From Candidatus Campbellbacteria bacterium GW2011_OD1_34_28 (lineage in GTDB: Bacteria; Patescibacteriota; Minisyncoccia; Phycocordibacterales; UBA12079), in the NCBI GenBank assembly GCA_001029775.1, contig CP011215.1, positions 32,148 to 96,147 on the forward strand: 64,000 bases of DNA. The letters run 5' to 3'. Made by a program: the position numbers and the translations under genes. Shown here one piece after another: positions 42,580-64,000 of this stretch. Position 1 is the stretch's first letter; the number at the start of each line of letters is the position of its first letter. The notes below the pieces were generated by a model. It made no database searches and was not told where the DNA came from. It worked only from the letters and a program-made list of their open reading frames with translations.

Positions 42580-44760
42580 TTACGGTCTTCTCCCTGCCCT
42601 AATTTCACTTATATAAAATTCTCCTTGTTCTTTAAACTCTGGATTTATCTCAATTGCTTTTTGCAAAACCTCTATAGACTTTTCTCGATTGCCAATATCA
42701 AGATAGCTGGCAGCCAAAGACAAATAATTTTGTAACTCGTTAGGTCTATTTTCAACGGCAAATTCCAAAATCTTTATCAGTTTTGAATATTGTTTTGTAT
42801 CATAATAAGCTTGAATTATTCTTGGGTTGTCTACTAGAACGGTTCCAAAAGTTTCCATCAAAATTCCATCTGCCAATTCTTGGTCTCCTAGACGAATAGC
42901 ATTTGCAGCATAATAAGCGGCTGCATCCTTAAAGCTCTTGTCCAATTCATAAGCTTGTTTGTAATAAACCAAAGCCTCTTCGCTCTTTTCTTGCAACTGC
43001 AAAACAGTTCCCGTCATAAACAAAATTGATTGTTTGTTTGGGGACAACTCACTCGCTCTCATAAAATGGGGCAAGGAATCATCATATGCACCAAAGCTAG
43101 ATAGCAATGTTCCCGCAATAACTTCTGTTCTTGCATTGTTTGGATCTCTTTCAATTTCTTTTAACATTTCTGCAAAAGCAAAATCGGCAACTCCTTGTTT
43201 GATTTCTGTAGTAGTGTCGGCAGATGCAACTTGAATTGCAAATTGTGCTAACTGTTCACGAACCTCTTGATTTCCAAAAGATTCATAAGACAAAGATTTT
43301 TGATAATTCTCCAAGTTAACATTTATATTTCCTTGTGGTCGCAATGCTTCCAATAGATGATAAGCCGTAAAAAATCCTTTTGTATTTACAAAATAAATTG
43401 AACCAAACATAACAACAACAATTACAGGCATTGCAACAAAATATTTTTTGTCACCAATCACTTTCTCATAATTAAACAAAATCCTTCCAGAATTTAAATT
43501 GTGCAAATAAGCAAGTAACGAGAAAAACAAAATATAACTGATCAGGTTATCAAACACAAAGAAATTGTGAATAAAATATCCTGCAAGCAATCCAATCAAA
43601 ATTGCTTTTTCTATCAGAGAGAAATGAGAATTTTTATCTCTAATCAAATAATACAAAATTGCAAAAAACAAAGACAGATATCCAATCAATCCCAAAATAC
43701 CACCCGCAATCAACCAATCAAAGAAAACATTGTGAGTTCTATCAAACCATTGCTCTTGATCATACATTCCGGGGTCATAATACTTGTTGAATACATAGTT
43801 AAAGTTTTCCTGTCCCCAACCCAATATAGGTCTTTCTTTAAAACCTTGAAATGCCATATCCCAAACCAAAAAACGAGATTTGGTTGTTGTTTCTTGCAAA
43901 GAGATATTGGCAAATCTATTCAACACAGGACTATTCTGAACAAAACTACTATCTTTCACCAAAATAAAACCTCCAACAAACAAAACCAAAGCAACTAATA
44001 CTCCCATAGCTATTTTCTTCAATTTTAAATTTTCTTTTTCAAACAAAGAAATTATAATCGCCGATATCATCAATCCCACAAGCAATCCCAAAATTGCTCC
44101 TCTAGTAGCGGTGTAATACAAAATCACTGTTTCCAAAACAATTACCAAACCGTACAGATAAGAAATCATATTCAAACCTTTTCTTTTTGCCAACATAAAG
44201 ATCGTCAAGAAAATATGCACGAGCAAATAAACGGCAAAGTAAGCCGAGTTTCCAAATGTTGCATCAAGACGAACACCTCCTTGGTGAACTTCTAATACTC
44301 CCAGCAACTGCATAACCCCGTAAAGAGAAAGACCAACACTGGCAACAATAGATGTATTCAAAAATCTTGCCCAAAGTTTTGAAGATGTCAAAACGCTTCC
44401 GACAACAACCAAATATCCAAAAAGGTGAACCAAAGTTACCCAACCCTCCATTCTTTCAAAATTACTCCAAATACTTTTCAAAGGATTTACTCCCATAAAA
44501 TCTGAAAGTCCAATCAAAGCAACAAAAATTGCCGAAAAAACCAATATCAGAGAATTCTTTAATCTGTACTCAGGATTGCGAAGTGAAAGAATCAGCCATA
44601 ACCCGATCATTATCTCTACCAAAATTCTAAAAACAAAAGCTTTTCCTGTTATAAAAGGAAAAAACAAATTTCCATAAACAACGAAAGGAATAAAAGGAAC
44701 TAAAAATATCGCCGTGAATAAAATGTATTTAAGTATATTATCTATTTTTGCCAAATTCAT
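42580..44760 (-). CDS. O-antigen ligase / Wzy-like polytopic membrane protein fused to C-terminal TPR repeats
   Basis: 726 aa. About 12 TM helices with a Wzy_C-like periplasmic loop, then a soluble domain of about 250 aa with TPR-like repeats (YYKQAYELDKSFKDAAAYYAANAIRLGDQE...). Confidence 0.65.
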   Translation of the reverse strand: MNLAKIDNILKYILFTAIFLVPFIPFVVYGNLFFPFITGKAFVFRILVEIMIGLWLILSLRNPEYRLKNSLILVFSAIFVALIGLSDFMGVNPLKSIWSNFERMEGWVTLVHLFGYLVVVGSVLTSSKLWARFLNTSIVASVGLSLYGVMQLLGVLEVHQGGVRLDATFGNSAYFAVYLLVHIFLTIFMLAKRKGLNMISYLYGLVIVLETVILYYTATRGAILGLLVGLMISAIIISLFEKENLKLKKIAMGVLVALVLFVGGFILVKDSSFVQNSPVLNRFANISLQETTTKSRFLVWDMAFQGFKERPILGWGQENFNYVFNKYYDPGMYDQEQWFDRTHNVFFDWLIAGGILGLIGYLSLFFAILYYLIRDKNSHFSLIEKAILIGLLAGYFIHNFFVFDNLISYILFFSLLAYLHNLNSGRILFNYEKVIGDKKYFVAMPVIVVVMFGSIYFVNTKGFFTAYHLLEALRPQGNINVNLENYQKSLSYESFGNQEVREQLAQFAIQVASADTTTEIKQGVADFAFAEMLKEIERDPNNARTEVIAGTLLSSFGAYDDSLPHFMRASELSPNKQSILFMTGTVLQLQEKSEEALVYYKQAYELDKSFKDAAAYYAANAIRLGDQELADGILMETFGTVLVDNPRIIQAYYDTKQYSKLIKILEFAVENRPNELQNYLSLAASYLDIGNREKSIEVLQKAIEINPEFKEQGEFYISEIRAGRRP

Positions 44761-44844
44761 ACCGTTAAAATGATTAAAATTATTAATAAATATGTATTTT
44801 CATAAATGATAGCATAATGATAAGATTAAGACATCTTTACATCC

Positions 44845-46104
44845 ATGAAAAAAATTATAGAAAATTACAGAAATAAAACCTACAAATTCCTCCGCTGGAG
44901 CGAAAAATGGACCAAAACAGACATGATATACCTCACCAAAGGCGGTTTTTGGCTTACACTAGGACAAATTTTTTCTTCTATATCAGGATTGCTTTTAGCG
45001 ATTGCATTTGCCCACTTCATCCCCCAAGAAATTTACGGAAATTACAAATATATATTATCTCTTGTCGGAATTTTAAGTGCCCTATCTCTTTCAGGAATTG
45101 GTGTATCTATAACACAAAATGTTGCTCGTGGTTTTGAAGGATCTCTGGAACAAGGTTTTTGGGAAAATCTTCGTTGGGGAATATTAGTGATATTAGCATC
45201 GTTAGGTGGTTTCATTTATTATTTTTTAAATGAAAATTATACTATCGCCTATTCTCTATTAATAGCAGGAACAACATACCCTATATTACAAAGTGCTTCT
45301 TTTTATGGATCATTTTTGGGAGGGAAAAGAGAATTCAAAGCTTCAACAATAATAGGAATATTTAGAAGTATCATTCCAGCGTTTCTAATTTTTCTAACAA
45401 TTGTTTTTACTCAAAATCTACTTGCTATTATTACAGTCTATTCTTTATCCCACGCCATAACAGCTTTGTTTTTTTATTTTTACACTATTAAAAAATTTAA
45501 GCCAAACAACAAAATAGATGAAAAAAATATAAATTTTGGAAAACATTTAAGTTTAATGGGTTCGCTTGGTACAGTCGCCGACAACCTGGAAAGCATTTTA
45601 ATTTTCCATTTTTTTGGAGGCGCTCAGTTGGCAGTTTATACTTTTGCTACCGCTCTTCCAAAACAATTTAATTTTTTAAAAAAAGCGATCCAAACAATGG
45701 CCCTACCAAAACTCAGCCAAAAATCAATTCCTGAACTGAAAAAAATTCTTCCTACAAAAGTAACAATGCTTTTCTTTGCTCTTATTCCTATTGTTGGTGC
45801 GTTTATATTGTCAGCGCCTTATATATATAAAATATTTTTTCCCCAATATCTTGATTCTGTAATTTATTCTCAGGTTTTGTCTCTATATATACTTCTCTTC
45901 CCTAGTCTTTTTTACACACAGGCTTTGGTTGCTCATGCAAAAAAAAGCTACCTTTATGTAACGGGAGTTACGCTACCCATAATCCAAATAATATCTCTTC
46001 TTATTCTTCTCCCTATTTACGGAATTTGGGGAGCTGTCTTTTCAACTCTTATACTAAGACTTTCAAATTTTATAATCTCTCTCTTCTTGTTTAATAGAAT
46101 GTAA
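44845..46104 (+). CDS. Oligosaccharide flippase (Wzx / MOP superfamily polysaccharide biosynthesis protein)
   Basis: 419 aa. About 12 TM segments and an N-terminal region typical of Polysacc_synt family proteins. Confidence 0.65.
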   Translation: MKKIIENYRNKTYKFLRWSEKWTKTDMIYLTKGGFWLTLGQIFSSISGLLLAIAFAHFIPQEIYGNYKYILSLVGILSALSLSGIGVSITQNVARGFEGSLEQGFWENLRWGILVILASLGGFIYYFLNENYTIAYSLLIAGTTYPILQSASFYGSFLGGKREFKASTIIGIFRSIIPAFLIFLTIVFTQNLLAIITVYSLSHAITALFFYFYTIKKFKPNNKIDEKNINFGKHLSLMGSLGTVADNLESILIFHFFGGAQLAVYTFATALPKQFNFLKKAIQTMALPKLSQKSIPELKKILPTKVTMLFFALIPIVGAFILSAPYIYKIFFPQYLDSVIYSQVLSLYILLFPSLFYTQALVAHAKKSYLYVTGVTLPIIQIISLLILLPIYGIWGAVFSTLILRLSNFIISLFLFNRM

Positions 46105-46151: not shown

Positions 46152-47024
46152 TTACTTCCTACGCAATTTTTTCTTGATGGGAACTTCGCGGTCGAGAACG
46201 ACCTTTTCGCCGTTCCCAAACCCTTCTTCAAAAACACGAATGTCGCGGATCATCAACTCGAAACCTTTCGGCTCGAGTGACGCTGCCTGATCAGACCCCC
46301 ACATCGTCCGATCCAGAGTAATGTGTCGTTCAACGACGCATGCACCCATGGCGACTGCGCACAAAGAAAGACTGATGCCTCTCTCGTGTCCACTATATCC
46401 GATGGGGTAATTCGGGTAACGCTTTTTGAGCGTGTTAATGACGGCCAAGTTGGCCTCCTCATTTTCCGATGGATATGTGGATACCGCATGCAGTATCACC
46501 AAAGGAATCTGGTGTTCAAAAAAAATTGCCACGGCCCGATCAATCTCTTCAACCGTGCTCATGCCCGTAGAAATAATCACCGGACGGTTTTTAGAAGCAA
46601 CGTGATTCAAAAGACCGATATCGGTCAAGCTCGCGGAAGCGATTTTGTGACAAGGCGGATCAAACTCATCCAGAAAATCAACGCTGGCCTCGTCCCACGG
46701 AGACGCAAACCACAAGATGCCTTTCTCTTTGCAGTAAGCATCAATTTCTTTATATCCGGCAAGGTCAAACTCGAGGCCGTATTTCAGGTCACCATTGGTC
46801 GTACCAAAAGGATTTTCCCTCGGCATTGCCAACTCTTCCTGTGTGTAGACGATATCAATCGTCCTCTTCTGAAATTTAACCGCGTCAGCACCCGCCGAAA
46901 CAGCCATATCAATGAGTTTTTTGGCAGTCTCCAAACTGCCGTTATGATTGATACCGACTTCGCCAATGATAAAACACGGCGCACCATTACCGACTTCTTT
47001 CCCTCCGATTTTGACTGATTTCAA
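46152..47024 (-). CDS. Nonulosonic acid synthase (NeuB/PseI/LegI family N-acetylneuraminate-synthase-like), no SAF domain
   Basis: 290 aa. CFIIGEVGINHNGSLETAKKLIDMAVSAGADAVKFQ and the TIM-barrel NeuB core. Ends before where the C-terminal SAF domain would be. Confidence 0.75.
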   Translation of the reverse strand: MKSVKIGGKEVGNGAPCFIIGEVGINHNGSLETAKKLIDMAVSAGADAVKFQKRTIDIVYTQEELAMPRENPFGTTNGDLKYGLEFDLAGYKEIDAYCKEKGILWFASPWDEASVDFLDEFDPPCHKIASASLTDIGLLNHVASKNRPVIISTGMSTVEEIDRAVAIFFEHQIPLVILHAVSTYPSENEEANLAVINTLKKRYPNYPIGYSGHERGISLSLCAVAMGACVVERHITLDRTMWGSDQAASLEPKGFELMIRDIRVFEEGFGNGEKVVLDREVPIKKKLRRK

Positions 47025-47215
47025 TTTTTTCTCCGTTCTCTGATGTTAATGTGAATAGTTCACCATACAATTTGTCTGCGCCAATTAAAACACAACAAAA
47101 ATATAAAATCAATAGAAAATTTAAAGTATTGCTAAAAATAAACTCTTATGTTTTAATTCACACAGAAATCAGCTCTAAAACATACTAAATATTCACAAAG
47201 TGAAAGGAGTAAAAA

Positions 47216-48019
47216 ATGAAAAAAAAGATCTATGGCTTGTCGGCTATAAACATTGAGCTGACAAACAGGTGCAACAAAGCCTGTTGGATGTGTGGGCGAA
47301 GAAAGGTGGAAAAGGATTATCCCAAACTTGCTCTGCAATATGGTGATATGGATTTCAATCTACTCAAAATTATCGCACCACAGATTCCCCCGAGGACTGT
47401 GATCCAATTTCACAAAGACGGCGAAGGATTGCTCTATCCCCGATTTGGAGAAGCTGTCAGGCTTTTTAAAAATCAAACAATCAAATGTCTCACGACCAAC
47501 GGAAAATTGTTAGCTGAAAAGGCCGCTGAAATAATCGGTAATCTGGATACAATTTCTCTTTCTATAATTCAAGACGACCCCGAAGCCGACGAGCAATACG
47601 AGGTCATCAAAAAATTTCTGGAAATGAAAGGCTCTCAAAAGCCCTTCGTGATTTACCGTCTACTTGGAGATGTTTCCTCGGACAGATATGAAAATCTCCC
47701 TGGCATTATTGTCCGCAGAATTCTTCATTCTCCGATGGGTAGTTTCAAATATCAAAAAAAGACGACTATCCCCGAAATCGGTTTTTGTCTTGATTTGATG
47801 AATCATCTCGTGATTAGCAATACTGGTGAGGTTTCTTTCTGTGTTCGCTTTGATCCCAACAAAATCGGAGTGCTTGGGAACATTAAAGAACAAACACTTT
47901 CGGAAATTTGGAACGGCGAAATGCGACAAGAAATTATAAACCTTCATATTGCCGGACGGAGGGATATGGTCACTCTCTGCTCAACCTGTGAATATTGGGG
48001 CGTTCCGACCAGCCCCTGA
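47216..48019 (+). CDS. Radical SAM protein with a SPASM/twitch-like C-terminus
   Basis: 267 aa. CNKACWMC (Cx3Cx2C) near the N-terminus and C-terminal Cys pairs (CVRF...LCSTCEYWG). SD AAAGGAG lies 9 nt upstream. Confidence 0.65.
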   Translation: MKKKIYGLSAINIELTNRCNKACWMCGRRKVEKDYPKLALQYGDMDFNLLKIIAPQIPPRTVIQFHKDGEGLLYPRFGEAVRLFKNQTIKCLTTNGKLLAEKAAEIIGNLDTISLSIIQDDPEADEQYEVIKKFLEMKGSQKPFVIYRLLGDVSSDRYENLPGIIVRRILHSPMGSFKYQKKTTIPEIGFCLDLMNHLVISNTGEVSFCVRFDPNKIGVLGNIKEQTLSEIWNGEMRQEIINLHIAGRRDMVTLCSTCEYWGVPTSP

Positions 48020-48021
48020 AC

Positions 48022-48047
48022 AAAAGCCACGCTTCGCGTGGCTTTTT
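48022..48047 (+). terminator. Rho-independent terminator
   Basis: aaaagccacgc-ttcg-cgtggctttttt. Confidence 0.65.
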
Positions 48048-48052
48048 TATTT

Positions 48053-49003
48053 TTATTTAGTACCAATAATCAAAGAAATCTCTTTTGGAAAATTGTTTAC
48101 CAGTTTGGTATATACCCTATTTTCGCTGGAAAGATCATTATATGTTTCCTTGTCAGGATCTATAAATTTTGATGTAAAAAATATCTGAATTTTTGGTGGT
48201 AATTTTGAAAAAATATTCTTTAAAATTCTTACAAAAAAATTATTACTATCGGAACGAGCAATATTATAATGTTCAAAATTTGAAAAATTTGTCAGCATAA
48301 AATATTTTTTCCAATCCTTCAATCTAAATTCTTGTTCGCCGTTCATTCTTCTCGTTAATCTCTCCTTTACATCAACCCCCATGTTCTTCTTTGCCTCTTC
48401 AGAATATTCCTTATCCAGCATATTCTTCAAATCATCTTCTTTCAAATAATCCGCCCGAGCTTTATCAAAACAAAAAATTACACCTCCTGGCTTCAACACT
48501 CTGTGGATTTCAGATAATGTCTTTTGTAAATCATTGGAGTGATGCAAGGAAAAAAAATCAAAAACAAAATCAACAGAATTGTCTTTCAGCTCCAAATTAT
48601 TAAACTCACCCACGACACCAACAACTTTTTCGCTTTTCTTTTTTCCTAAAACAAAGTCGGCAATAACAGGCATCAATTCAGTCACAATATTTTCGCAAAC
48701 TTCAACAGCATAAATCTTTTCCACTTTTTTGTTATCTGCCAAAACAGCACTAAAAAATCCCGGTCCCGCCCCTACTTCCAAACCAACGCCTTTTATTTTT
48801 TTATTTAAAAAATTTTTATTTATGTATTTAAAAAATTTTTTTACATCAATAATAGTAATATTGGGAGCAACATTATCAAATGTAATTTTTTTAATTATTT
48901 CAACAGGGTTAGAATCTTTTAAAGAAATTGCAAAATCTGTCCGATAATGACTATCAATTTCTTTTTTTAACTCTGGTTGAATCTTCCAATTTAATATCTG
49001 CAT
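48053..49003 (-). CDS. Class I SAM-dependent methyltransferase
   Basis: 316 aa. GVGLEVGAGPGFFSAVLA motif I and VLKPGGVIF. Confidence 0.7.
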   Translation of the reverse strand: MQILNWKIQPELKKEIDSHYRTDFAISLKDSNPVEIIKKITFDNVAPNITIIDVKKFFKYINKNFLNKKIKGVGLEVGAGPGFFSAVLADNKKVEKIYAVEVCENIVTELMPVIADFVLGKKKSEKVVGVVGEFNNLELKDNSVDFVFDFFSLHHSNDLQKTLSEIHRVLKPGGVIFCFDKARADYLKEDDLKNMLDKEYSEEAKKNMGVDVKERLTRRMNGEQEFRLKDWKKYFMLTNFSNFEHYNIARSDSNNFFVRILKNIFSKLPPKIQIFFTSKFIDPDKETYNDLSSENRVYTKLVNNFPKEISLIIGTK

Positions 49004-49026
49004 AAATTACATAATACCCCAAAAGC

Positions 49027-49055
49027 ATTGACTACCCTAGCTAATTTGTTTATAT
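49027..49055 (+). promoter_or_regulatory. Sigma70-type promoter candidate for the cytidylyltransferase gene
   Basis: TTGACT (49027-49032), a 17-nt spacer, then TATATT (49050-49055), about 50 nt upstream of the ATG at 49104. Confidence 0.4.
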
Positions 49056-49103
49056 TGAAAAAAGAAAAAATGTTCTATAAACCCAAATCATGAGGATAAA
49101 ATA

Positions 49104-50739: not shown

Positions 50740-50760
50740 ATAGACAATCTCAATTTAACA

Positions 50761-52149: not shown

Positions 52150-52152
52150 AAT

Positions 52153-53674: not shown

Positions 53675-53690
53675 ACTGCTAACAAATAAA

Positions 53691-57065: not shown

Positions 57066-57072
57066 TCCACTA

Positions 57073-57762
57073 TTATTTTACCTTACAAAAATAAACGATT
57101 TGGTGTCCAAGCATATTTTTCCAAATATTTTTTAAAGGAGGCACCAAACCAAACAAAGAAAAACCATTTGATGAAACAGATTTTTCAATATCTAACCCCA
57201 TTGCATTCAGCCAATCCAAAAAATCTATATGCGACCAAAATCTAATATGCTCTGACGGATGATAAACCCATTGAGTAAAAAATCTTCCTCCAAAAAATAG
57301 CCCTATTCTATATCTATAAAAAGCACTATTCGGTACGGTAATAATAAAACTTTTTGTGTATTTCTTCAATTCTCCAATAATTTCTTCTGGATTTTTTGTA
57401 TGTTCCAAAACTTCACTCAAAATAATAACATCAAATTTCCCATCCAATTTTAAACTATCTATTTTTTCCAAATCAATCTGCAAACTTGAAATGTTATATT
57501 TTTGAAAACCCCTCAAAACTTCTTCTGAAATATCCGCAACTTTTATGTCGATCCCCTTCTCTTTCAATTCAACAGGGAGACGAGAATTTCCACATCCAAT
57601 ATCCAAAACTTTTTTATCAATAGCAATATTGTTCAAGATAATCAATTCTCTCTCCTTCATTTTTTTATTTATTTCAAAACCTCTTTCAGACCAATATCGG
57701 TTATAATCGATTTTCTTTATCTCTGAAAAATTTGGTTTTCTTGTGCCTTCAAATTTAAACAT
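57073..57762 (-). CDS. Class I SAM-dependent methyltransferase
   Basis: 229 aa. KVLDIGCGNSRLPVELKEKG motif I. Confidence 0.7.
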   Translation of the reverse strand: MFKFEGTRKPNFSEIKKIDYNRYWSERGFEINKKMKERELIILNNIAIDKKVLDIGCGNSRLPVELKEKGIDIKVADISEEVLRGFQKYNISSLQIDLEKIDSLKLDGKFDVIILSEVLEHTKNPEEIIGELKKYTKSFIITVPNSAFYRYRIGLFFGGRFFTQWVYHPSEHIRFWSHIDFLDWLNAMGLDIEKSVSSNGFSLFGLVPPLKNIWKNMLGHQIVYFCKVK

Positions 57763-57763
57763 C

Positions 57764-58804
57764 TTATTTCTTTAAATCATTTAACAAATCTCTCACTAAT
57801 ATCTTGGGAGTTAATCTTTTATTGAAGATATCAAATGCATTGTTTGATATTTTTTCTCTCAAAAAATCGTCTTTTTTTATTTTGATTATCTTTTGAGCCA
57901 AGTCTCTTCCATCGGCTCTGTTACACAAAATAATGCTTTCATTATCCTCAAATAATTCTTTAATAGCAAGAGTACTAGCTGTTATTACAGGTTTCCTTAT
58001 AGCAATTGCTTCATAAACTTTGTTTGGAATGACATTGTCAGCTTTTTCGGTATTTCCAAAAATCCCCAAACAAAGATCAGCTTTGTTCATATATTCGGAT
58101 AATTTTTCATAAGAAATATTTTCAATAAAATTGATATTATCAAACTTTTTACCCAAATACTTTTTTTTGATATTTGTTCCTATTATATTAAATTGGATAT
58201 CTTTTTCTTTTTCCAAAATCTTTGCCGATTCTATTATGTATTCAACCCCCTGCAATGGAATAAAACTCCCGTGAAAATGAACTACAAAATTTTTGTCCTT
58301 TCTTTCACTATCTTTCGGATAAAAAATAGAGTTGTCACTTCCAACAAAGACACGAATAAATTTATCTTTATCTATTTTAAAATTTTTAGAAAAATAATCT
58401 ATATGTCTGTTTGTATCCAAGAGAATTTTTTCAGCGAACATACAACTATACCAATCTAAAAACCAATCTCTAAAGCCTCTCGGACTAAAAGGTTTGTACA
58501 ACTTTCTATCCCAGACATTTGAATCGTAAAGAGAAACAAAAGCATCAAAAATAATATCTTTACCAAACAAAAGATATGCAAGCCACACGACAGAATGACC
58601 CGGGAAAGCAACTATTATATAATCAAATTTTATATCTTTAATTTTTTTATATTCCTCCAACAAAGCAATGTATTTTTTTATTTTTCCAGATTTTGGATCT
58701 ACTTTGCATTCAAAAACATCAAAACCGTTTTGCTTGAAACCAGAAATCAATACTCTATTTCTAGAATATTCAGGATTATAAATACCAAAAAAGCAGATTT
58801 TCAT
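57764..58804 (-). CDS. Glycosyltransferase (GT-B fold, GT4-like)
   Basis: 346 aa. The C-terminal domain with NKVYEAIAIRKPVITAS resembles the GT4 E-x7-E region. Confidence 0.6.
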   Translation of the reverse strand: MKICFFGIYNPEYSRNRVLISGFKQNGFDVFECKVDPKSGKIKKYIALLEEYKKIKDIKFDYIIVAFPGHSVVWLAYLLFGKDIIFDAFVSLYDSNVWDRKLYKPFSPRGFRDWFLDWYSCMFAEKILLDTNRHIDYFSKNFKIDKDKFIRVFVGSDNSIFYPKDSERKDKNFVVHFHGSFIPLQGVEYIIESAKILEKEKDIQFNIIGTNIKKKYLGKKFDNINFIENISYEKLSEYMNKADLCLGIFGNTEKADNVIPNKVYEAIAIRKPVITASTLAIKELFEDNESIILCNRADGRDLAQKIIKIKKDDFLREKISNNAFDIFNKRLTPKILVRDLLNDLKK

Positions 58805-58806
58805 AT

Positions 58807-59841
58807 TTAAAAATGAGTTTTTATTTTCTTTATCAAATTAACAACAGAATAATTTTCTCTTACAAAATCACTTAATTCCTTTTTATTATTATACCCCTCT
58901 TTCAAAATTGAAAAGATCTTATCTGCCAACTCGTTCTTATCATCATTTTTTAAGATAAGTTTGTCATCTCTCAAAATATTCACAAATGTTTTATTGAGAG
59001 CAATTGCCGGCGTTCCGCAAAGCAATGATTCCAACACTACCTTGTCTAATCCCCCCGTCGGGGCAAGATTTATACTAAATCCTGACTCATAATAATATAG
59101 ATGTATAAAATTGTTTGGAACACTCCCAATAAAAATTATATTGTTTTCCAAACCCTTATTGTCAACAAAATCTTTAACACTCTTATAATAACCATTATCA
59201 AAATCGGAAAAACCTCCTACCAATGCAACTTTTAAATCGCGTACACCTTTTTCGTTAACCAAGACATCAACTGCTTCAACCAAAAGTTTTTGATTTTTTA
59301 TTGGAGATATTCTACCAACACAAACAGCTGTATATTTTCTTTGTTCTACATTTTTATATTGATATTTATCTACATCTATACCATGACCTACTATTTTCAA
59401 CTTTTTGCTTCTTAGCAGAAAGCTTTCTTTTGATGCAGAAAAAATTACATTCGTGATTTTTTCAGCGATTCTTAATTTAAGATCAATATTTTTATGGGTG
59501 TACCACAAAGCAAGTCTGTTTCCTCTCAACCTCCAAAACAAACCGCCTAAAACAACATAAATAGGATTCATGTGGACAAATACACGGTCATATTCATTGC
59601 GATTTTTCCAAATATATTTATAGAAACGAAAAAAAGCTCTTAGCTTATAGCTTATAGCTGATAGCTCGTCTTTGCCTAAAGACAATACTTTTACATTGTT
59701 AGGTAAATTGTGTTCCCCCTCGTAAAGACAGATCACTGTTACCTTTTCATAATTCTTGGCAAATTCAATAACCCACTGGTGAAAAAAACCGAGAACATCA
59801 TCATGTTTATCTATTTTCTGCGTAATTATAAGCAAATTCAT
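58807..59841 (-). CDS. Glycosyltransferase family 4
   Basis: 344 aa. GLDKVVLESLLCGTPAIA. Contains an imperfect heptamer tract. Confidence 0.7.
   Translation of the reverse strand: MNLLIITQKIDKHDDVLGFFHQWVIEFAKNYEKVTVICLYEGEHNLPNNVKVLSLGKDELSAISYKLRAFFRFYKYIWKNRNEYDRVFVHMNPIYVVLGGLFWRLRGNRLALWYTHKNIDLKLRIAEKITNVIFSASKESFLLRSKKLKIVGHGIDVDKYQYKNVEQRKYTAVCVGRISPIKNQKLLVEAVDVLVNEKGVRDLKVALVGGFSDFDNGYYKSVKDFVDNKGLENNIIFIGSVPNNFIHLYYYESGFSINLAPTGGLDKVVLESLLCGTPAIALNKTFVNILRDDKLILKNDDKNELADKIFSILKEGYNNKKELSDFVRENYSVVNLIKKIKTHF
59635..59669. repeat. Imperfect heptanucleotide tandem tract (AGCTNNT x5) inside a glycosyltransferase gene
   Basis: agctctt agcttat agcttat agctgat agctcgt; encodes ...DELSAISYKLRA... 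Confidence 0.6.
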
Positions 59842-59845
59842 ATTT

Positions 59846-61003
59846 TTACTTTAAACAACTCTCCCAATCTTCTTTCATTTTATTCAAATACTCTTGTTTG
59901 TCTTTTATAACATTTTCTTCAATTCTTTTTCTGGCTTTAATGGACATATCACACAAAAGCAATTTATCCTTCAAAAGTTTTTTAATTTCTGCGACAAAAC
60001 AATCTTTATCACCTGTCTTACATACTTTTATATCCCCTTCTTTTAACACACCGCCTACCAAACCAACATCAGTTGTCAGAATAGGACATCCCGATGCAGA
60101 GGCTTCTATCAAAGACATCCCGTAACCCTCGTAGTTAGAAGTGAACAAAAACAAATCGGCTGTTTTGTAATAAGAAAACAAATCTTTTTGCCATCCTTCG
60201 AAGATTATACTAGCTGATAGCTTATAGCCGATAGCTGATAGCTCTAGTTTTCTTTTCAAAGATCCGTCGCCTACAATAACAAGTCCTGCTTTGGGATGTT
60301 TCTTAATAATTTTCTTCATTACTTTTATAGCCATAGAAATATTCTTCTCTTTTTCTAAACGACAAGTCATCAAAATAATAAAATCAAATTGAGGATATTT
60401 TTTGTGCAAATCAAAGGCGGGTATTTTATTTTCGTAATTTTTAATATCAACAAAAATTGGCAAAACAATTGGTTCAGTTTTTAGTTTATAGTTTTTAGTT
60501 TTTAGAGACTGACTTATTCGCTCGCTAACTACCCTCACCCCATCGGCTTTTGGTAATAAAAATTTTGCCAAACAAACTCTGACACGATTTAAGAAAGATT
60601 CTTTTATAAAATATTTACTCAAAAAATCAGTGTGTATTTGTAAGTGCAATTTTGCACCTGTTTTTTTCGCAATCCACCAACCTACAAAACCAGTTTCAAA
60701 AACGTCCTGAGTCGTAACCAGATTACCTTCTACTTTCCACTCTCTACTTTCAAAAATTTCTTTAGAAATTTTTATTGCATCAAAAATATAAAACCAACGA
60801 TTTCTGGAATTTGTTGGATATAAAGTAACATTGGTCCCTAAAATCCTTTCTACTTGATACTTACTACTTGCTACTCTTGTCGACGAATTGAATATCACAA
60901 TATTTAGTTCGTCGACAAGTTTGCCATACTGAACAACCCTCTGTCGAACGGCAGAATCCCTCTCAAGAATCTTTCTATCTGTTGAAATCATTAAAATTTT
61001 CAT
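59846..61003 (-). CDS. Glycosyltransferase family 4
   Basis: 385 aa. GMSLIEASASGCPILTTDVGLVGGVL. Contains three distinct heptamer tracts. Confidence 0.7.
   Translation of the reverse strand: MKILMISTDRKILERDSAVRQRVVQYGKLVDELNIVIFNSSTRVASSKYQVERILGTNVTLYPTNSRNRWFYIFDAIKISKEIFESREWKVEGNLVTTQDVFETGFVGWWIAKKTGAKLHLQIHTDFLSKYFIKESFLNRVRVCLAKFLLPKADGVRVVSERISQSLKTKNYKLKTEPIVLPIFVDIKNYENKIPAFDLHKKYPQFDFIILMTCRLEKEKNISMAIKVMKKIIKKHPKAGLVIVGDGSLKRKLELSAIGYKLSASIIFEGWQKDLFSYYKTADLFLFTSNYEGYGMSLIEASASGCPILTTDVGLVGGVLKEGDIKVCKTGDKDCFVAEIKKLLKDKLLLCDMSIKARKRIEENVIKDKQEYLNKMKEDWESCLK
60211..60247. repeat. Imperfect heptanucleotide tandem tract (TAGCTNA x5) inside a glycosyltransferase gene
   Basis: tagctga tagctta tagccga tagctga tagctct; encodes ...LELSAIGYKLSAS.... 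Other tracts in the same gene are TTTTTAG x4 (60478-60505) and TACTTNN x4 (60851-60878). Confidence 0.6.
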
Positions 61004-61067
61004 TTGTATTCATAGTAGCACCCAAACAGACAAAAATTAAGACCGAGCATCTGCTCGGTCTTATTGT

Positions 61068-61247
61068 TTACCTACGAAATCTCCAGTTGGTGGTCCTTGC
61101 CCATTCGCGACCACTTTCAAGAACATCGTCACCTTTTTTAAAAATTCTTTTCACGAAAGAAGCTGTTTGTGGGTCAATCCTTACAGGATACCCCTTTCCC
61201 TCCAGTCCATACTTTTTTGCAAAAGTAATTTTATTTTGTTGTGACAT
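61068..61247 (-). CDS. Small hypothetical protein (59 aa)
   Basis: MSQQNKITFAKKYGLEGKGYPVRIDPQTASFVKRIFKKGDDVLESGREWARTTNWRFRR. The start is taken at the internal Met of track ORF 61068..61319. Basic C-terminus. Confidence 0.35.
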   Translation of the reverse strand: MSQQNKITFAKKYGLEGKGYPVRIDPQTASFVKRIFKKGDDVLESGREWARTTNWRFRR

Positions 61248-61257
61248 AAATATTCCC

Positions 61258-61476
61258 TTAGAATTGTTTACATTTACGATATCGAACAGGGTTATCCCCG
61301 CAAGATATCGTCTCAACACGGCCTCGAAGATTATTCAAAAAACCACGAACAATATTTTTGTCAGATCCGATTTTATTAGAGATTTCATCAATTGTCACAC
61401 CACTCTCTTTTTCTTCCCAATCTGGAATAGCTTCAAAAACTTTTTGTTTTAATTTGTCAAAAAAATCATTGCTCAT
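61258..61476 (-). CDS. Small winged-helix DNA-binding protein (72 aa), putative regulator
   Basis: VTIDEISNKIGSDKNIVRGFLNNLRGRVETI has a wHTH-like pattern. Lies 10 nt upstream of the 59-aa ORF. Confidence 0.4.
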   Translation of the reverse strand: MSNDFFDKLKQKVFEAIPDWEEKESGVTIDEISNKIGSDKNIVRGFLNNLRGRVETISCGDNPVRYRKCKQF

Positions 61477-61536
61477 ACAAATCTCCTCTTTTTTACAAAG
61501 ATAGGTTAAATCTTGTCTGAATATATAGTAATTACT

Positions 61537-62643
61537 CTATTTTTGCAACAAAACATCCACCAACTCATCCAGCATCTTTTCTTCATCAAAATGTTTCAGT
61601 TTTTCTTTGGCATTTGCGACAAGCTTGTCAGCAAAAACCCTCTTTTTTGACAACTTCAAAATTGCCTCTTTCAATTGTTCTTTATTGTTGTAATCAATCA
61701 AAAGACCTTCTCTTTCATCTTTTATCAATTCTGGATTTCCGCCTACATTGGTCGTGATTATCGCGGTTCCAACACTCATCACTTCTAACAACTGATGAGA
61801 AAGCCCTTCATAGCCAGTATTTAAAACAAAAATGTCTGATGCTTTTATTTGTTTTAACAAATCATCCTTACCCAAACGACCAGACAAAACCACTCTATTT
61901 TCCAAGCCCATTTTTTTTATTTTTTCTTGCAATTTATCATAATCAGGACCCTCTCCTGCAATAATCAATCTTGTCTCGGGCAATTCATTTACGACATCTA
62001 TCAAAGTGTCATACCCTTTCCAAGGAACAAGTCTACCCGCAGAAAAAATAGCCGTACCACTTATTTTGTAACGAATTCGCAAACTATATTTTTCTTCAAT
62101 AATATCAACAGGGGCAAAAGCGTTGTAAATAACGGTTATTTTTTTTTCATCGATTCCCCAACCAGACACTATATCTTTTAAATAATTGCTTGGAGTGATT
62201 ATTTTTTCTGCTCTATCGGCCGTAAACTTTTCTATTTTTTTCAAAAGCTCTGTTTTGAAATCAAATTTTCTTTTCCAAAAATTTTCTGGGTAAACAAAAT
62301 CCATCTCTTGTGCGCTTTTGCTTTGTTGAAATTGTTCCCAAGCGTAATCACCCACCACCTTCAAAACAAATTTCTTATTTATCTTTTTACAAGCACAAGC
62401 AGTTGGAAAGCCGACAGAAACAGGATCTTGAACATAGATTAGATCGGCATCTCTCCCCAATTTCTTTACTTTTTGATAATAAACAAAATGTCTAATTATT
62501 TTTGGCAGATGTCGCACCTCACTGAAACTTAAAATTTTTACACTGATTTCTTTTTCTGGAAGCCTGTCAAAAAGCAACTTTGAATAAGTTGCCGGGCCTC
62601 CCATATCAGGAGGGTATATTCCTGTGCATACCAATAATTTCAT
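61537..62643 (-). CDS. Glycosyltransferase family 4
   Basis: 368 aa. GLSHQLLEVMSVGTAIITTNVGGNPELI. Confidence 0.75.
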   Translation of the reverse strand: MKLLVCTGIYPPDMGGPATYSKLLFDRLPEKEISVKILSFSEVRHLPKIIRHFVYYQKVKKLGRDADLIYVQDPVSVGFPTACACKKINKKFVLKVVGDYAWEQFQQSKSAQEMDFVYPENFWKRKFDFKTELLKKIEKFTADRAEKIITPSNYLKDIVSGWGIDEKKITVIYNAFAPVDIIEEKYSLRIRYKISGTAIFSAGRLVPWKGYDTLIDVVNELPETRLIIAGEGPDYDKLQEKIKKMGLENRVVLSGRLGKDDLLKQIKASDIFVLNTGYEGLSHQLLEVMSVGTAIITTNVGGNPELIKDEREGLLIDYNNKEQLKEAILKLSKKRVFADKLVANAKEKLKHFDEEKMLDELVDVLLQK

Positions 62644-62712
62644 TATTATATATAGAATAGCAATTTTAAAGAGAAAAATAAAATACCGCGCCCAAATGGA
62701 CGCGGTAAGAGA

Positions 62713-63153
62713 TCAGAATGTAATCTGCGACGAATAAAGCTCGTTTCTGACCATCTCAAAGATATCACAATTAGCAGAGATGTTGAACCTTCTAATACAA
62801 AAATCTGAGACATAGGTTATCTCTGGAATAGAAGGAGAAACAAGAACATTTTTATTAACAATAACTTTCTCACAAAATTTAGGTTTCCAATTTTTGTCTT
62901 GAGAAATACCCTCAAACGAGCACTTTCTCTCTCCAGAAACCATATCATAAAAATAAAAAAGAATTGCAATACGATTCAGATCCAAAACCAATCCGATACA
63001 CTCAATACCGTCGATTTCTCCCAAATCCCTGCGGAAAGTAATTTCTTCTCCAAACAAAAAATCTTTTGAGCACGAAAAAATATCCATGACTTCCCTCATC
63101 AAAAAATTAATTTGAACAAATCCTAAATGAGAGAATATAAAAAATCTGGTCAT
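62713..63153 (-). CDS. Hypothetical protein of about 130-146 aa in the glycan cluster
   Basis: ORF with no clear signature. The true start may be MREVMDIF (63099). No TM. A cupin-like small sugar-modifying enzyme is possible. Confidence 0.35.
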   Translation of the reverse strand: MTRFFIFSHLGFVQINFLMREVMDIFSCSKDFLFGEEITFRRDLGEIDGIECIGLVLDLNRIAILFYFYDMVSGERKCSFEGISQDKNWKPKFCEKVIVNKNVLVSPSIPEITYVSDFCIRRFNISANCDIFEMVRNELYSSQITF

Positions 63154-63162
63154 TAGTCAACA

Positions 63163-64000
63163 TCACTTGGAAACAGGGTTTCCAAGTAGATTGTTAAAGA
63201 CTTTTTGCTTCATATCATTAGCAATAATATTCCAATCATATTTTTCAAATACCATTTTTTTGGCAGTAGCAACAACAATCTTTACATTTTCAGGACTATT
63301 TAAAATATCTTTTATCGTCTCTGCAATTTGCTCGGGGCTTCTCTTGTCTACTGCCCAACCCGTCGCCTGCTTGTCAGGATTTCTCTTTGCGTCAAACAAA
63401 AAATCAGCTATACCACCCTCTTGTGTAGCGATTACAGGAATTTCACAAGCCATTGCTTCAACAAAAGAATTACCAAATCCTTCGGAAAGAGCAGGGCGAA
63501 TAAAAATATCTGATATTCTCAAATATTTTGGCATTTCTTTGTGACTAACAAGCCCTAAAAATTTTACGCGATTTTCAACACCTTCTGTTTTTGCAAGACT
63601 CATCAAATCTTCTTTGTCCGGACCTTCACCCAATACAACAAATTTTATATTTTCTGGTAAATATTTTAATGATTTAATAACATCGTCAACGGCATTTTTC
63701 AAAACAAGTCTGGATGTTGTGATCATAAATTTGTCACCTTCTTTTTTATCCAATTTTTTCTTCAATTCACCCAAATCACTTTCAGAATAAATTTGTGAAA
63801 AATGTTTTGTATCAACCGCATTGGGAACAATTTCTACTTTTCCCTCAAAACCCATATCTTTTGCCCAAAATCCTAAATAGTTTGAAATCGCCTGAATAAC
63901 ATCGGCTTTTGTAAAGATTTTTACAAACAAAGGATACACAAACCTAACCTTTCTTTTTATATAATCAATTGGGTCGCCTTCTTGAAGTGTTAGTAGGTAT
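63163..64000 (-). CDS. Glycosyltransferase family 4 (5' end beyond the window)
   Basis: The reading frame stays open past 63939 to the window edge (...YLLTLQEGDPIDYIKRKVRFVYPLFVK...). The C-terminal domain has SEGFGNSFVEAMACEIPVIAT, the GT4 EX7E region. The track's M at 63939 is a GTG inside the gene. Confidence 0.7.
   Translation of the reverse strand, partial: YLLTLQEGDPIDYIKRKVRFVYPLFVKIFTKADVIQAISNYLGFWAKDMGFEGKVEIVPNAVDTKHFSQIYSESDLGELKKKLDKKEGDKFMITTSRLVLKNAVDDVIKSLKYLPENIKFVVLGEGPDKEDLMSLAKTEGVENRVKFLGLVSHKEMPKYLRISDIFIRPALSEGFGNSFVEAMACEIPVIATQEGGIADFLFDAKRNPDKQATGWAVDKRSPEQIAETIKDILNSPENVKIVVATAKKMVFEKYDWNIIANDMKQKVFNNLLGNPVSK

Follow-up and report, generated by a model that had tools for sequence, protein, structure and literature searches.

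Enzymes of the NeuB family are alpha-carboxyketose synthases, which condense phosphoenolpyruvate (PEP) with an aldose, and the BtrN/SpeY-like twitch enzymes form a group that oxidizes sugar hydroxyls. The type members of the BFO_1060 family, which carry an HP motif, are needed for the addition of pseudaminic or legionaminic acid (Pse/Leg) derivatives in Tannerella forsythia (PMC5420450). An earlier description of a trio of trimmed NeuB, BtrN-like radical-SAM and CMP-activating enzymes was not found in the literature. Here, we describe a locus carrying these three genes in a 64,000-nucleotide stretch (the window) of contig CP011215.1 from Candidatus Campbellbacteria bacterium GW2011_OD1_34_28; Campbellbacteria belong to the Parcubacteria, within the CPR.

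Organization of the Glycan Locus

Gene families in the window were assigned by Pfam and NCBIfam scans (Table 1). Judged by its sequence, 42580-64000 belongs to a single glycan locus of about 24 kb in total, of which about 2.7 kb extends past the window end on the same contig and holds the remainder of the last GT4 gene (complete at 409 aa, to about 64392, as seen whole in L087), an NAD-dependent epimerase/dehydratase and a Bac_transf initiating transferase. Since the island reaches this initiating phosphoglycosyl transferase, we class it as a Wzx/Wzy-type locus. It seems to us moderately probable that it serves a lipid-linked, heavily decorated heteroglycan on the Campbellbacteria surface, with an embedded module for an activated acidic sugar.

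Table 1. Features of the glycan locus and its continuation past position 64000.
Feature	Position	Strand	Length (aa)	Family evidence
Wzy_C membrane protein with C-terminal TPR domain	42580-44760	-	726	Pfam Wzy_C E 4.4e-23, residues 206-362; TPR repeats over 498-709
Wzx-type flippase (Polysacc_synt)	44845-46104	+	419	Pfam PF01943 E 3.6e-18
SAF-less NeuB-family alpha-carboxyketose synthase	46152-47024	-	290	Pfam NeuB E 3.7e-77, 259 bits
BtrN/SpeY-like twitch radical-SAM enzyme	47216-48019	+	267	Radical_SAM + SPASM
Class I SAM methyltransferase MT316	48053-49003	-		Methyltransf_11/UbiE-like, Pfam E 3.7e-18
NeuA/PseF-like CMP-ulosonic-acid synthetase	49104-49826	+	240	CTP_transf_3, Pfam E 4.8e-24
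Alpha/beta-hydrolase, membrane-anchored, putative carbohydrate esterase	49846-50739	-	297	Pfam BD-FAE E 5.3e-56
TagF/TagB-like GT-B enzyme, candidate CMP-ulosonic-acid transferase	50761-52149	-	462	Glyphos_transf
Methyltransferase with N-terminal zinc ribbon	52153-53097	-	314	Methyltransf_23, Pfam E 1.7e-20; CPLC...CRGC
MetW-like methyltransferase	53087-53674	-	195	Pfam MetW E 2.6e-13
Polysaccharide pyruvyl transferase (CsaB-like)	53691-54848	-		Pfam PS_pyruv_trans E 2.2e-28
GT4 (end overlaps next GT4)	54826-55926	-		Glycos_transf_1 E 8e-38
GT4	55923-57065	-		Glycos_transf_1 E 3.9e-20
MetW/Methyltransf_23 methyltransferase	57073-57762	-	229	Pfam E 5.3e-20
GT4	57764-58804	-		Glycos_transf_1 E 1.7e-17
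GT4	58807-59841	-		Glycos_transf_1 E 1.4e-16
GT4	59846-61003	-		Glycos_transf_1 E 7.7e-34
Small ORFs (three)	61068-61247, 61258-61476, 62713-63153			no family assignment
GT4	61537-62643	-	368	Glycos_transf_1 E 1.8e-36
GT4 cut by window end (frame open to base 64000)	63163-64000+	-		Glycos_transf_1 E 9e-38
NAD-dependent epimerase/dehydratase (after full-length GT4 gene in L087)	about 64446-65312		288	
Bac_transf initiating transferase (L087)	about 65342-66685			passes TIGR03025, 320.9 vs cut-off 295.55

The scans bore out the general reading of a preliminary description, which had proposed a surface-glycan island of more than 20 kb with a nonulosonic-acid-type module and unusual tailoring. Its Wzy/O-antigen-ligase-like protein with TPR repeats, Wzx flippase, NeuB-family synthase lacking the SAF domain, radical SAM/SPASM enzyme, NeuA-family CMP-sugar synthetase, alpha/beta hydrolase and pyruvyl transferase were all recovered, and the overlapping starts and stops are genuine (e.g., 55923-55926 and 53087-53097). 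Other details had to be amended: instead of at least eight GT4 enzymes, Pfam gives seven, and instead of five methyltransferases, there are four in the region, the second of which does carry the zinc ribbon, while a fifth lies far from the island at 5908-6603. The genes, described as contiguous and mostly co-directional, run in one direction only over 49846-64000; the first seven alternate strands and the small ORFs interrupt the GT run.

The Wzy_C family comprises O-antigen polymerases, ligases and O-oligosaccharyltransferases. L001 (95% identity) and L002 keep the Wzy_C-TPR gene beside the module, as do CPR metagenome loci (L091, L093, L095, L097, L098 and L101); the Wzx gene recurs next to NeuB/MT316 in CPR loci. 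Among the tailoring enzymes, the zinc-ribbon methyltransferase is 26% identical to a methyltransferase cluster present in 52/83 clustered radical-SAM loci, and homologues of the 229-aa methyltransferase come after MT316 in L093, L094, L098, L099 and L101. The BD-FAE hydrolase, whose N-terminus is hydrophobic, is not conserved in related loci. The pyruvyl transferase scores 111.7 bits against TIGR03609 (CsaB), under the cut-off of 213; the glycan may plausibly be pyruvylated or methylated. It might decorate an S-layer or the giant proteins nearby, as the preliminary description suggested; SLH domains were not found in those proteins.

The NeuB-like and NeuA-like Enzymes

The NeuB-like protein matches the Pfam NeuB domain alone, the Pfam scan finding no SAF domain, and its closest PDB relatives are NeuB, SpsE and PseI. 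Alignment to 1xuu shows an intact catalytic set with conserved metal and PEP ligands (Glu22, Lys50, Gln52, Lys127, Ser130, Ser152, Tyr184, Ser211, His213, Glu232, His234 and Asp245), and these residues are kept in 64/64, or nearly all, of the radical-SAM-linked NeuBs. The equivalent of Neisseria Glu134, replaced by Ser in the window and by Met, Ser, Cys or Leu across the subfamily, is never retained in the 64 sequences compared; therefore, the mechanism or substrate may differ from that of NeuB. The gene has a GC content of 0.48, compared to about 0.30 in adjacent genes.

Curated NCBIfam cut-offs were missed by the NeuB_NnaB (TIGR03569, 265 vs 400), PseI (TIGR03586, 215 vs 340) and PseF (135 bits vs 205.7) scores, as they were by CsaB and BFO_1060. 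Because neither the NeuB-like nor the NeuA-like gene reaches a Neu5Ac or Pse equivalog cut-off, we call the product a putative nonulosonic acid. The KdsA/KdsB (KDO) identity, which the preliminary description had named as a possible refutation, was rejected, since the synthase is NeuB-family (259 bits) and the cytidylyltransferase is nearest to NeuA enzymes in the PDB (E 1.9e-26, vs 1e-8 for KdsB). The same description had seen no NeuC/PseB/PseC-type precursor genes, and tblastn probes (epimerase, DegT, class III and class IV aminotransferases, SDR, SIS and VOC) likewise found no match in the 64-kb window.

Linkage of the Radical-SAM Enzyme to NeuB

The 267-aa radical-SAM protein is a putative sugar hydroxyl dehydrogenase. 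It has a single radical-SAM cluster motif, Cx3Cx2C (C19/C23/C26), and four auxiliary-cluster cysteines (191, 209, 255 and 258), all invariant in the family. BtrN is its top PDB match by sequence (E 2e-9), and the sole full-length one, as well as by family profile (E 3.8e-13); in a fold comparison of the AF2 model, BtrN was best (E 4e-11), followed by the twitch dehydrogenase SpeY.

We surveyed 80 loci from GTDB genomes with radical-SAM homologues 54-62% identical to that of the window, 43 of which have no less than 6 kb on either side. A SAF-less NeuB, often adjacent, lay no more than 8 kb from the radical-SAM gene in 41/43; a CTP_transf_3 gene was nearby in 40/43 and an aminotransferase in 32/43. 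Three unrelated classes of aminotransferase are represented, namely Aminotran_3 (15 loci), Aminotran_4 (13) and DegT (10), with two present at some loci; loci free of them mostly have an SDR. The linked loci come from archaea and many bacterial phyla, and the NeuB, radical-SAM and CMP-activating trio appears to co-occur in many anaerobic bacteria and archaea; Desulfobacter curvatus DSM 3379 and Desulfovibrio sp. JC022 are among the cultured strains that carry the module. The comparative data show that the radical-SAM enzyme, which had been placed among the many tailoring enzymes, accompanies this NeuB subfamily as a core partner in different phyla.

This linkage bears on whether the locus could instead serve standard synthesis of Neu5Ac, pseudaminic acid or legionaminic acid, with precursor genes (NeuC, PseB/C/H/G, LegB/C/H/G) elsewhere and the radical-SAM enzyme tailoring another sugar. 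The top family matches (NeuB_NnaB, PseI and PseF) and closest structures (NeuB, SpsE, PseI and NeuA) agree with such a pathway, as do the epimerase/dehydratase just past the window and a 4,6-dehydratase-like epimerase and DegT aminotransferase in the island of a near-identical strain (L001/L090). However, the equivalog scores all lie well under the cut-offs, the SAF domain and, throughout the subfamily, the Glu134 equivalent are missing, the radical-SAM gene is linked to NeuB in unrelated phyla, CPR genomes are small and the window holds no precursor family, making this pathway unlikely.

The CPR Variant

Homologues of MT316 (39-53% identity) directly adjoin the SAF-less NeuB gene in L091-L094, L098, L101 and L102, and MT316 was absent from the non-CPR loci examined; MT316 is thus a CPR-specific partner of NeuB. 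In the CPR core, this pair has CTP_transf_3, TagF-like, Wzx and Wzy-TPR genes close by. Most of these loci lack a BtrN-like gene and have an SDR or a large radical-SAM gene instead; therefore, the BtrN-like gene may be accessory, not core, in CPR. In the window's locus, aminotransferase and SDR are absent, leaving the putative ketone without an obvious taker.

The radical-SAM gene of this genome might be an evolutionary remnant or an accessory that the glycan can do without, the CPR pathway consisting of NeuB, MT316, the NeuA-like and TagF-like enzymes and an NAD-dependent partner elsewhere. The SDR-bearing MT316 loci would fit, as would a neighbouring B12-type radical-SAM gene that shows a clean presence/absence difference between strains about 93-95% identical. 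We find this quite improbable, as the protein retains every invariant family residue, including all seven cluster cysteines, is 99% identical to P0121 from another assembly, and is encoded by a gene resembling NeuB in GC content and conservation.

The TagF-like Candidate Transferase

The 462-aa GT-B enzyme, earlier labelled TagF/capsule-synthase-like, scores above the Pfam Glyphos_transf cut-off and matches the C-terminal part of BFO_1060, under the curated cut-off. It is better read as a candidate transferase for the CMP-sugar. The Glyphos_transf match, and the annotation of relatives in the sources as CDP-glycerol glycerophosphotransferase family proteins, would also suit a teichoic-acid-like polymer, made by a TagF/TarL-type CDP-alditol phosphotransferase supplied with CDP-alcohol by the CTP_transf_3 enzyme, the NeuB product being minor or separate. 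This is very doubtful: the cytidylyltransferase is nearest to NeuA and not of TagD/TarI type, the transferase travels with NeuB and CTP_transf_3 in CPR loci, its match to BFO_1060 is the stronger one, and the island has no glycerol-3-phosphate or ribitol-phosphate supply genes.

The same protein could be a divergent NeuC/WecB-like (hydrolysing) 2-epimerase feeding the aldose to NeuB, with a GT4 enzyme transferring the acid, which would bring back a NeuC-NeuB-NeuA scheme; GT4 enzymes, however, are not known to act as sialyl-type transferases. Its chances are slim, given that the Epimerase_2 HMM gives no match while Glyphos_transf and BFO_1060 both do, that identity is 11-15% to epimerases vs 18% to TarL, that the helical insertion at residues 66-151, both basic and hydrophobic, is typical of membrane-associated transferases, and that the HP motif is invariant.

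Proposed Pathway and Comparison with Known Systems

For the decorated heteroglycan favoured here, we infer each chemical step, its substrate, its place in the order and the acceptor as follows. The polyprenyl-phosphate glycosylphosphotransferase encoded just outside the window would start a chain that the seven GT4 enzymes would extend; three further methyltransferases, the pyruvyl transferase and the esterase may tailor the glycan, Wzx would flip it across the membrane, and the Wzy_C-TPR protein would polymerize it or ligate it to an acceptor. Within this locus, an acidic sugar would be made and activated by a four-gene module, in which the SAF-less NeuB would join PEP and an aldose into a 3-deoxy-2-ulosonic acid, the BtrN/SpeY-like enzyme would oxidize one secondary hydroxyl to a ketone, on the acid or its precursor, the NeuB-linked MT316 would modify the sugar, and the NeuA-like enzyme would form the CMP-sugar. 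The membrane-associated TagF/BFO_1060-like enzyme would then attach this sugar to the glycan. The product is probably a CMP-activated, methylated, oxidized or epimerized ulosonic acid, its chemistry remaining putative.

In most other lineages, the ketone would be aminated by an aminotransferase or reduced by an SDR; in contrast, the CPR variant has no aminotransferase, and its NeuB is paired with MT316 and a TagF-like transferase.

Extent and Type of the Glycan Island

The window is a segment of a bacterial chromosome with an overall GC content of 35%, in which the ORF listing and the profile searches identified genes for SecA, MurB, Obg, enolase and PEP synthase. The same two sources showed that, from position 42580 to the window end, all substantial ORFs are glycan-synthesis genes. 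The gene inventory of this region in the preliminary description was correct overall, except that there are four methyltransferases and not five, and seven GT4 glycosyltransferases, the last cut by the window end, and not at least eight. The genes had also been described as mostly co-directional, which does not hold for the first seven genes of the island, where the strands alternate.

A public copy of the contig, located via a GT4 encoded in the window, showed that the island reaches about 2.7 kb past base 64000 and ends with a Bac_transf enzyme, which passed TIGR03025, the model for polyprenyl glycosylphosphotransferases (320.9 against a cut-off of 295.55). A Wzx flippase (Polysacc_synt) and a Wzy_C protein were both found in the locus with Pfam. 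The position of Bac_transf at one end and of Wzx and Wzy_C at the other implies that the locus, about 24 kb long, is of the Wzx/Wzy type.

Features of the window and of the continuation of the island, with their coordinates
Coordinates	Strand	Feature
8600-11869	-	1089-aa protein; Peptidase_S74 ("chaperone of endosialidase"), then bacterial surface Ig-like domain
12077-18589	-	2170-aa protein; same ending, plus GDSL lipase/acylhydrolase domain and weak YadA-head repeat
19919-22471		ABC transporter/MacB-FtsX pair
22496-29182	-	2228-aa protein; seven Pur_ac_phosph_N/fn3-type repeats
29891-36324	-	2-hydroxyacid dehydrogenase, short enolase (395 aa), PEP synthase/PPDK, glycerate kinase (DUF4147/MOFRL)
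36875-38509	-	Pif1-like helicase with C-terminal HTH_40 domain
42580-44760	-	Wzy_C-TPR protein
44845-46104	+	Wzx flippase
46152-47024	-	NeuB-like synthase without SAF domain
46152-49826		region of raised GC
46323-47018		231-aa ORF antisense to NeuB
47216-48019	+	BtrN-like radical-SAM enzyme
48019-48048		site where the B12-binding radical-SAM gene of a near-identical strain is missing
48053-49003	-	class I methyltransferase MT316
49104-49826	+	NeuA-like cytidylyltransferase (CTP_transf_3)
50761-52149	-	TagF-like GT-B enzyme (462 aa), candidate CMP-ulosonic-acid transferase
52153-53097		zinc-ribbon methyltransferase
61068-61476 and 62713-63153	-	three small ORFs (59, 72 and 146 aa)
beyond 64000		remainder of 409-aa GT4
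beyond 64000		NAD-dependent epimerase/dehydratase (288 aa)
about 1.3-2.7 kb beyond window end		Bac_transf enzyme (447 aa)

The pyruvyl transferase reached the general PS_pyruv_trans family (100 bits against 25) and stayed below the cut-off of the CsaB model for SCWP pyruvyl transferases (TIGR03609, 111.7 bits against 213.1). An SLH/S-layer connection of this CsaB-like enzyme was rejected, since the profile search detected no SLH domain in the giant neighbouring proteins. These proteins, possible targets of the glycan according to the preliminary description, have fn3/purple-acid-phosphatase-N repeats, a domain of the GDSL lipase type, and C-termini with Peptidase_S74 and Ig-like domains. The methyltransferases had only generic class I methyltransferase matches in the PDB and NCBIfam, with no specific function. 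The three small ORFs between the GT4 genes had no significant family match; each is followed by a GC-rich terminator-like hairpin, and the gene calls of the public contig include them as well.

The 1089- and 2170-aa proteins, which share their ending, may be trimeric fibre-like surface proteins, since S74 is a domain typically found in the tail fibres and spikes of phages. In the 2228-aa protein, whose gene is followed by the ABC transporter pair, the profile search detected neither an SLH domain nor any other domain for cell-wall anchoring. The Pif1-like helicase gene adjoins secA and is unrelated to the glycan island. The genes at 29891-36324, upstream of the SecA/MurB/glycan region, yield PEP, the NeuB co-substrate, and are probably housekeeping genes.

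The Synthase Represents a Trimmed NeuB Subfamily

By its sequence, the synthase is unambiguously a member of the NeuB family (PF03102; 259.5 bits against a cut-off of 22.1, E 3.7e-77, model positions 1-241 of 241), and its nearest solved structures are a 290-aa SAF-less NeuB (6ncs), SpsE, PseI and Neisseria NeuB. In the alignment with the Neisseria meningitidis structure (1xuu), the active-site residues are intact: His213/His234 match His215/His236, the metal-binding pair; Lys50/Lys127 and Ser130/Ser152/Ser211 match Lys53/Lys129 and Ser132/Ser154/Ser213, which bind PEP; and Glu22, Gln52, Tyr184 and Asp245 match Glu25, Gln55, Tyr186 and Asp247. These metal, PEP and catalytic residues are kept in 60-64 of 64 family members.

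The protein stops at residue 290 and, according to Pfam, consists of the NeuB domain alone, with no C-terminal SAF/antifreeze-like domain, which in Neu5Ac synthase helps to bind ManNAc. The 63 aligned NeuB homologues linked to the radical-SAM gene are 260-330 aa long; five longer ORF calls (340-356 aa) of the same cluster were left out of the alignment. At the site equivalent to N. meningitidis Glu134, the window NeuB has Ser132, and 62 of the 64 aligned proteins have Met, Ser, Cys or Leu, with no Asp or Glu among the residues listed; 6ncs has Asp there, while SpsE and PseI have Glu. Hence, the radical-SAM-linked NeuBs form a distinct subfamily. The window NeuB is 97% identical to a protein of Candidatus Campbellbacteria RIFCSPLOWO2_01_FULL_34_15, which, together with the Campbellbacteria match of the TagF-like protein (see below), places the source among the Parcubacteria/CPR bacteria. 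The ORF antisense to NeuB has no family match and was dismissed as a shadow ORF in a GC-rich gene.

The preliminary description had named KdsA/KdsB as the assignment that would speak against nonulosonic-acid genes. This Kdo assignment was rejected on family scores and PDB comparison: KdsA gave no match for the synthase in the NCBIfam/profile search, the KdsB models scored 33-53 bits with the cytidylyltransferase against cut-offs of 155-281, and the cytidylyltransferase is nearest to NeuA in the PDB (E 1.9e-26, compared to 1e-8 for KdsB). The synthase did not reach the equivalogs for Neu5Ac synthase (TIGR03569, 265.1 bits against 399.65) or PseI (TIGR03586, 215.1 against 340.25), nor did the cytidylyltransferase reach PseF (TIGR03584, 135.4 against 205.7). 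As had been described, a search of the 64-kb window found no genes of the NeuC, Pse or Leg type for nucleotide-sugar precursors. Membership in any one known nonulosonic-acid pathway is thus not established by these scores. In several loci with the NeuB module (L004, L005, L046, L088, L089, L091 and L097), GmhA-like SIS isomerases, GHMP/PfkB kinases, KdsC-like HAD phosphatases or transketolases are encoded, a hint that some lineages could supply NeuB with a heptose or a different phosphorylated sugar.

A BtrN-like Radical-SAM Enzyme Is Linked to NeuB Across Phyla

The only full-length relative of the radical-SAM enzyme among solved structures is BtrN, the 2-deoxy-scyllo-inosamine dehydrogenase (phmmer E 2e-9 over residues 9-265; family profile E 3.8e-13). 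Foldseek with an AF2 model of moderate confidence (pLDDT 78) also placed BtrN first (E 4e-11, TM 0.61-0.65), followed by the twitch radical-SAM dehydrogenase SpeY. The protein has a SPASM domain (Pfam E 6.5e-13), and 15 diverse members all share the Cx3Cx2C motif at C19/C23/C26 as well as C191/C209/C255/C258, which fit one auxiliary cluster. The family proved compact: of 1.84 billion representatives searched exhaustively, only 54 matched at E <=1e-30, followed by a steep drop in score, and no NCBIfam model came near its cut-off for this enzyme. Two library proteins were looked at as fusions. In P0369 (518 aa), a GIY-YIG nuclease domain is fused upstream of the radical-SAM enzyme, which is uninformative as a functional clue, while P0408 (309 aa), half CTP_transf_3 joined to a SPASM half, was rejected as a functional fusion, being probably a truncated or merged gene call or an assembly artefact.

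Homologues 54-62% identical to the window protein occur in bacteria (Omnitrophota, Desulfobacterota, Planctomycetota, Lentisphaerota, Nitrospirota, Elusimicrobiota, Chloroflexota, Actinomycetota and Saccharibacteria) and in archaea (Methanoperedens, Thermoplasmatota and Woesearchaeota), and carriers available in culture include Desulfobacter curvatus DSM 3379 and Desulfovibrio strains such as Desulfovibrio sp. JC022. For 83 loci, the ORFs around the gene were clustered and the clusters named by Pfam. Linkage was counted for neighbours within 8 kb of the radical-SAM gene, in the 43 loci whose flanks both extended to 6 kb or more. A SAF-less NeuB, 46-67% identical to that of the window, is present in 41 of these 43 loci and CTP_transf_3 in 40; the gene linkage is statistically strong. 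An aminotransferase of any class is present in 32 of the 43 (Aminotran_3 in 15, Aminotran_4 in 13 and DegT in 10), some loci having two, and an SDR is found in most loci that have none. Other recurring neighbours are B12-type radical-SAM enzymes, VOC/glyoxalase proteins, epimerase/dehydratases, SIS isomerases and a zinc-ribbon methyltransferase related to that of the window, and the recurring gene orders are NeuB-rSAM-CMPs, rSAM-NeuB-CMPs-AT and NeuB-CMPs-AT-rSAM (rSAM, radical-SAM; CMPs, CMP-synthetase; AT, aminotransferase). A BtrN-like dehydrogenase together with non-orthologous aminotransferases is the pattern expected if a hydroxyl is oxidised and then transaminated. The presence of an aminotransferase or, in most other loci, an SDR gives indirect support to the radical-SAM enzyme as a putative SAM-dependent oxidiser of a secondary alcohol to a ketone.

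NeuB/NeuA-bearing glycan islands are ordinary, CPR genomes included, and sources label such genes N-acetylneuraminate synthase. What stands out is the conserved association between a trimmed NeuB subfamily and a BtrN-like radical-SAM enzyme, a module that no curated family model covers. It was not found in the searchable literature on radical-SAM enzymes and on nonulosonic, ulosonic or sialic acids. A cyanophage paper was rejected as a precedent, since only unrelated KdsA/KdsB and radical-SAM genes appear in it.

The Parcubacteria Version and Its Variation Between Strains

The aminotransferase, SDR, VOC, SIS and epimerase families were not found in the 64-kb window; instead, MT316 lies between the radical-SAM gene and the cytidylyltransferase gene. 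A metagenome scan for MT316 gave 13 loci, onto which the window proteins were mapped. In most of them MT316 is immediately beside a SAF-less NeuB, with the cytidylyltransferase, TagF-like, Wzx and Wzy_C-TPR genes close by, and the loci also carry an SDR and/or a large radical-SAM enzyme. By this mapping, Parcubacteria share a core of NeuB, MT316, cytidylyltransferase, TagF-like protein, Wzx and Wzy_C-TPR with a variable redox partner. Among the MT316-type CPR loci, the BtrN-like gene is confined to the window's own lineage (L090 and L001/L002), and the BtrN-like enzyme would take the role of redox partner in this genome.

We compared the window with a near-identical strain (about 93-95% identity over the core genes), in which a 1.7-kb gene for a B12-binding radical-SAM enzyme (541 aa; L001 7264-8977, L090 8990-10612) lies between the BtrN-like gene and MT316. 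This gene is precisely missing from the window, as is a strain-specific sulfotransferase gene next to NeuB, and the TagF-like gene has strongly diverged between the two strains. Hence, the island is mosaic at the strain level. The GC content of the genes for NeuB (0.48), the radical-SAM enzyme (0.42) and the cytidylyltransferase (0.39) is raised compared to the flanking island genes (0.27-0.30) and the window (0.35), which fits a strong amino-acid constraint, a horizontal origin, or both.

The TagF-like Protein Is a Candidate Transferase

The TagF-like protein, 100% identical to one of a "Candidatus Campbellbacteria bacterium" MAG, passed the gathering score of the TagF/TagB family (PF04464, Glyphos_transf). 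Its confident GT-B model has a basic, hydrophobic helical insertion, which is consistent with membrane association. The match to NCBIfam BFO_1060 (NF046086) was stronger than that to Glyphos_transf, but covered only the C-terminal half of the family (model positions 208-362) and did not reach the cut-off (50.4 bits against 200). The Tannerella forsythia enzymes of this family are TagB-like GT-B proteins with an HP motif and are needed to add a terminal Pse or Leg derivative; HP and D/E-D/E-G are their sialyltransferase-type motifs (PMC5420450). H300-P301 is invariant in the CPR family, while the D/E-D/E-G motif has no clear counterpart, with only F-D-G (372-374) and a D-E-D-H stretch present. 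In structure searches, NeuC/WecB 2-epimerases ranked marginally above TarL/TagF, and we keep as a rival reading that the protein is such an epimerase; the HMM evidence and the conserved place beside the cytidylyltransferase favour a CMP-sugar transferase.

A Proposed Route to a Ulosonic Acid

The analysis shows the gene content, the domain families, the intact active-site residues and the gene linkage, and the chemistry proposed here is inferred from these. In the most likely mechanism, the NeuB-like enzyme would form a 3-deoxy-2-ulosonic acid from an aldose, the radical-SAM enzyme would act as a dehydrogenase on that sugar or its precursor, MT316 would methylate the ulosonic-acid sugar and the TagF-like enzyme would transfer it. 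The Wzy_C-TPR protein may either polymerise repeat units or, as a ligase, attach the glycan to protein or to the cell wall. As a tentative reading, which may well prove wrong, we propose that a NeuB lacking SAF and Glu134, a BtrN-like radical-SAM enzyme and a CMP-synthetase, usually with an aminotransferase of one of three classes, form an undescribed O2- and NAD-independent route to modified ulosonic acids. In this route, a free sugar or sugar acid would first undergo radical oxidation and then transamination or reduction, which would give the amino or epimeric centre; canonical pathways set this centre on a nucleotide-sugar before condensation. The route would have spread by horizontal transfer in anaerobic bacteria and archaea, and the Parcubacteria version would be derived, without an aminotransferase and with a NeuB-linked methyltransferase.

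Sialic-acid-like sugars affect the recognition of microbial surfaces, and their biosynthesis is thought to use few canonical nucleotide-sugar-based routes. If our proposal is true, the conserved module would bring a new enzymatic logic into this biosynthesis, extend the known substrates of twitch radical-SAM dehydrogenases by another class and probably lead to sugar structures not seen before. Since D. curvatus DSM 3379 and the Desulfovibrio carriers are cultured, the proposal is directly testable. For CPR biology, the six core genes are a concrete conserved envelope-glycan gene set in host-attaching organisms, and its variation among near-identical strains is expected for a surface structure under selection.

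Comparison with Known Systems

Like the Wzx/Wzy-dependent loci for O-antigen, capsule and S-layer glycans, the island has a Bac_transf initiator, serial GT4s, a Wzx flippase and a Wzy_C protein. It differs in the TPR domain fused to Wzy_C, in that no chain-length regulator was seen in the island, and in its host, a CPR bacterium, whose envelope glycans are uncharacterised. The TagF-like protein has the GT-B fold, the TagB/TagF-like domain and the HP motif of the T. forsythia Tanf_01245/BFO_1060 transferases, and its gene, like theirs, is located together with genes for a NeuB-type enzyme and a CMP-synthetase. The CPR proteins form a distinct family, with identities of 41-72% among Patescibacteria only. 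In the Streptomyces cluster for a Kdn-containing teichulosonic acid, a monoderm-type cell-wall glycopolymer locus, a TagF-like gene likewise stands alongside NeuB-like and NeuA-like genes; we know of no radical-SAM or MT316 partner there.

As in the bacterial NeuB/NeuA, PseI/PseF and LegI/LegF pathways, the island combines a condensing enzyme of the NeuB family, which depends on PEP and has the same ligands for metal and PEP, with a CMP-activating enzyme of the CTP_transf_3 family, and the genes lie within a surface-glycan locus. It differs in lacking the SAF domain, an acidic residue at the Glu134 position and the NeuC/Pse/Leg precursor genes, in scoring below every equivalog cut-off, and in an obligate-looking radical-SAM partner. 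In the synthesis of Kdo8N in Shewanella, the oxidase KdnB and the aminotransferase KdnA act on Kdo, and the proposed logic, in which a hydroxyl of a ready-made ulosonic acid would be oxidised and then transaminated, is the same; KdnB, however, is a metal-dependent alcohol dehydrogenase and not a radical-SAM enzyme, and Kdo is made by KdsA and not by a NeuB homologue. Compared to BtrN (butirosin) and SpeY (spectinomycin), the radical-SAM enzyme is only about 20-22% identical and is encoded in a NeuB/CMP-sugar module rather than in an aminocyclitol antibiotic cluster, in the window variant without an aminotransferase. These proteins are nevertheless its best sequence and fold matches, are alike in size (about 250-300 aa) and in having one radical-SAM cluster and one four-Cys auxiliary cluster, and their steps precede transamination, just as the gene described here is paired with an aminotransferase gene in most lineages.
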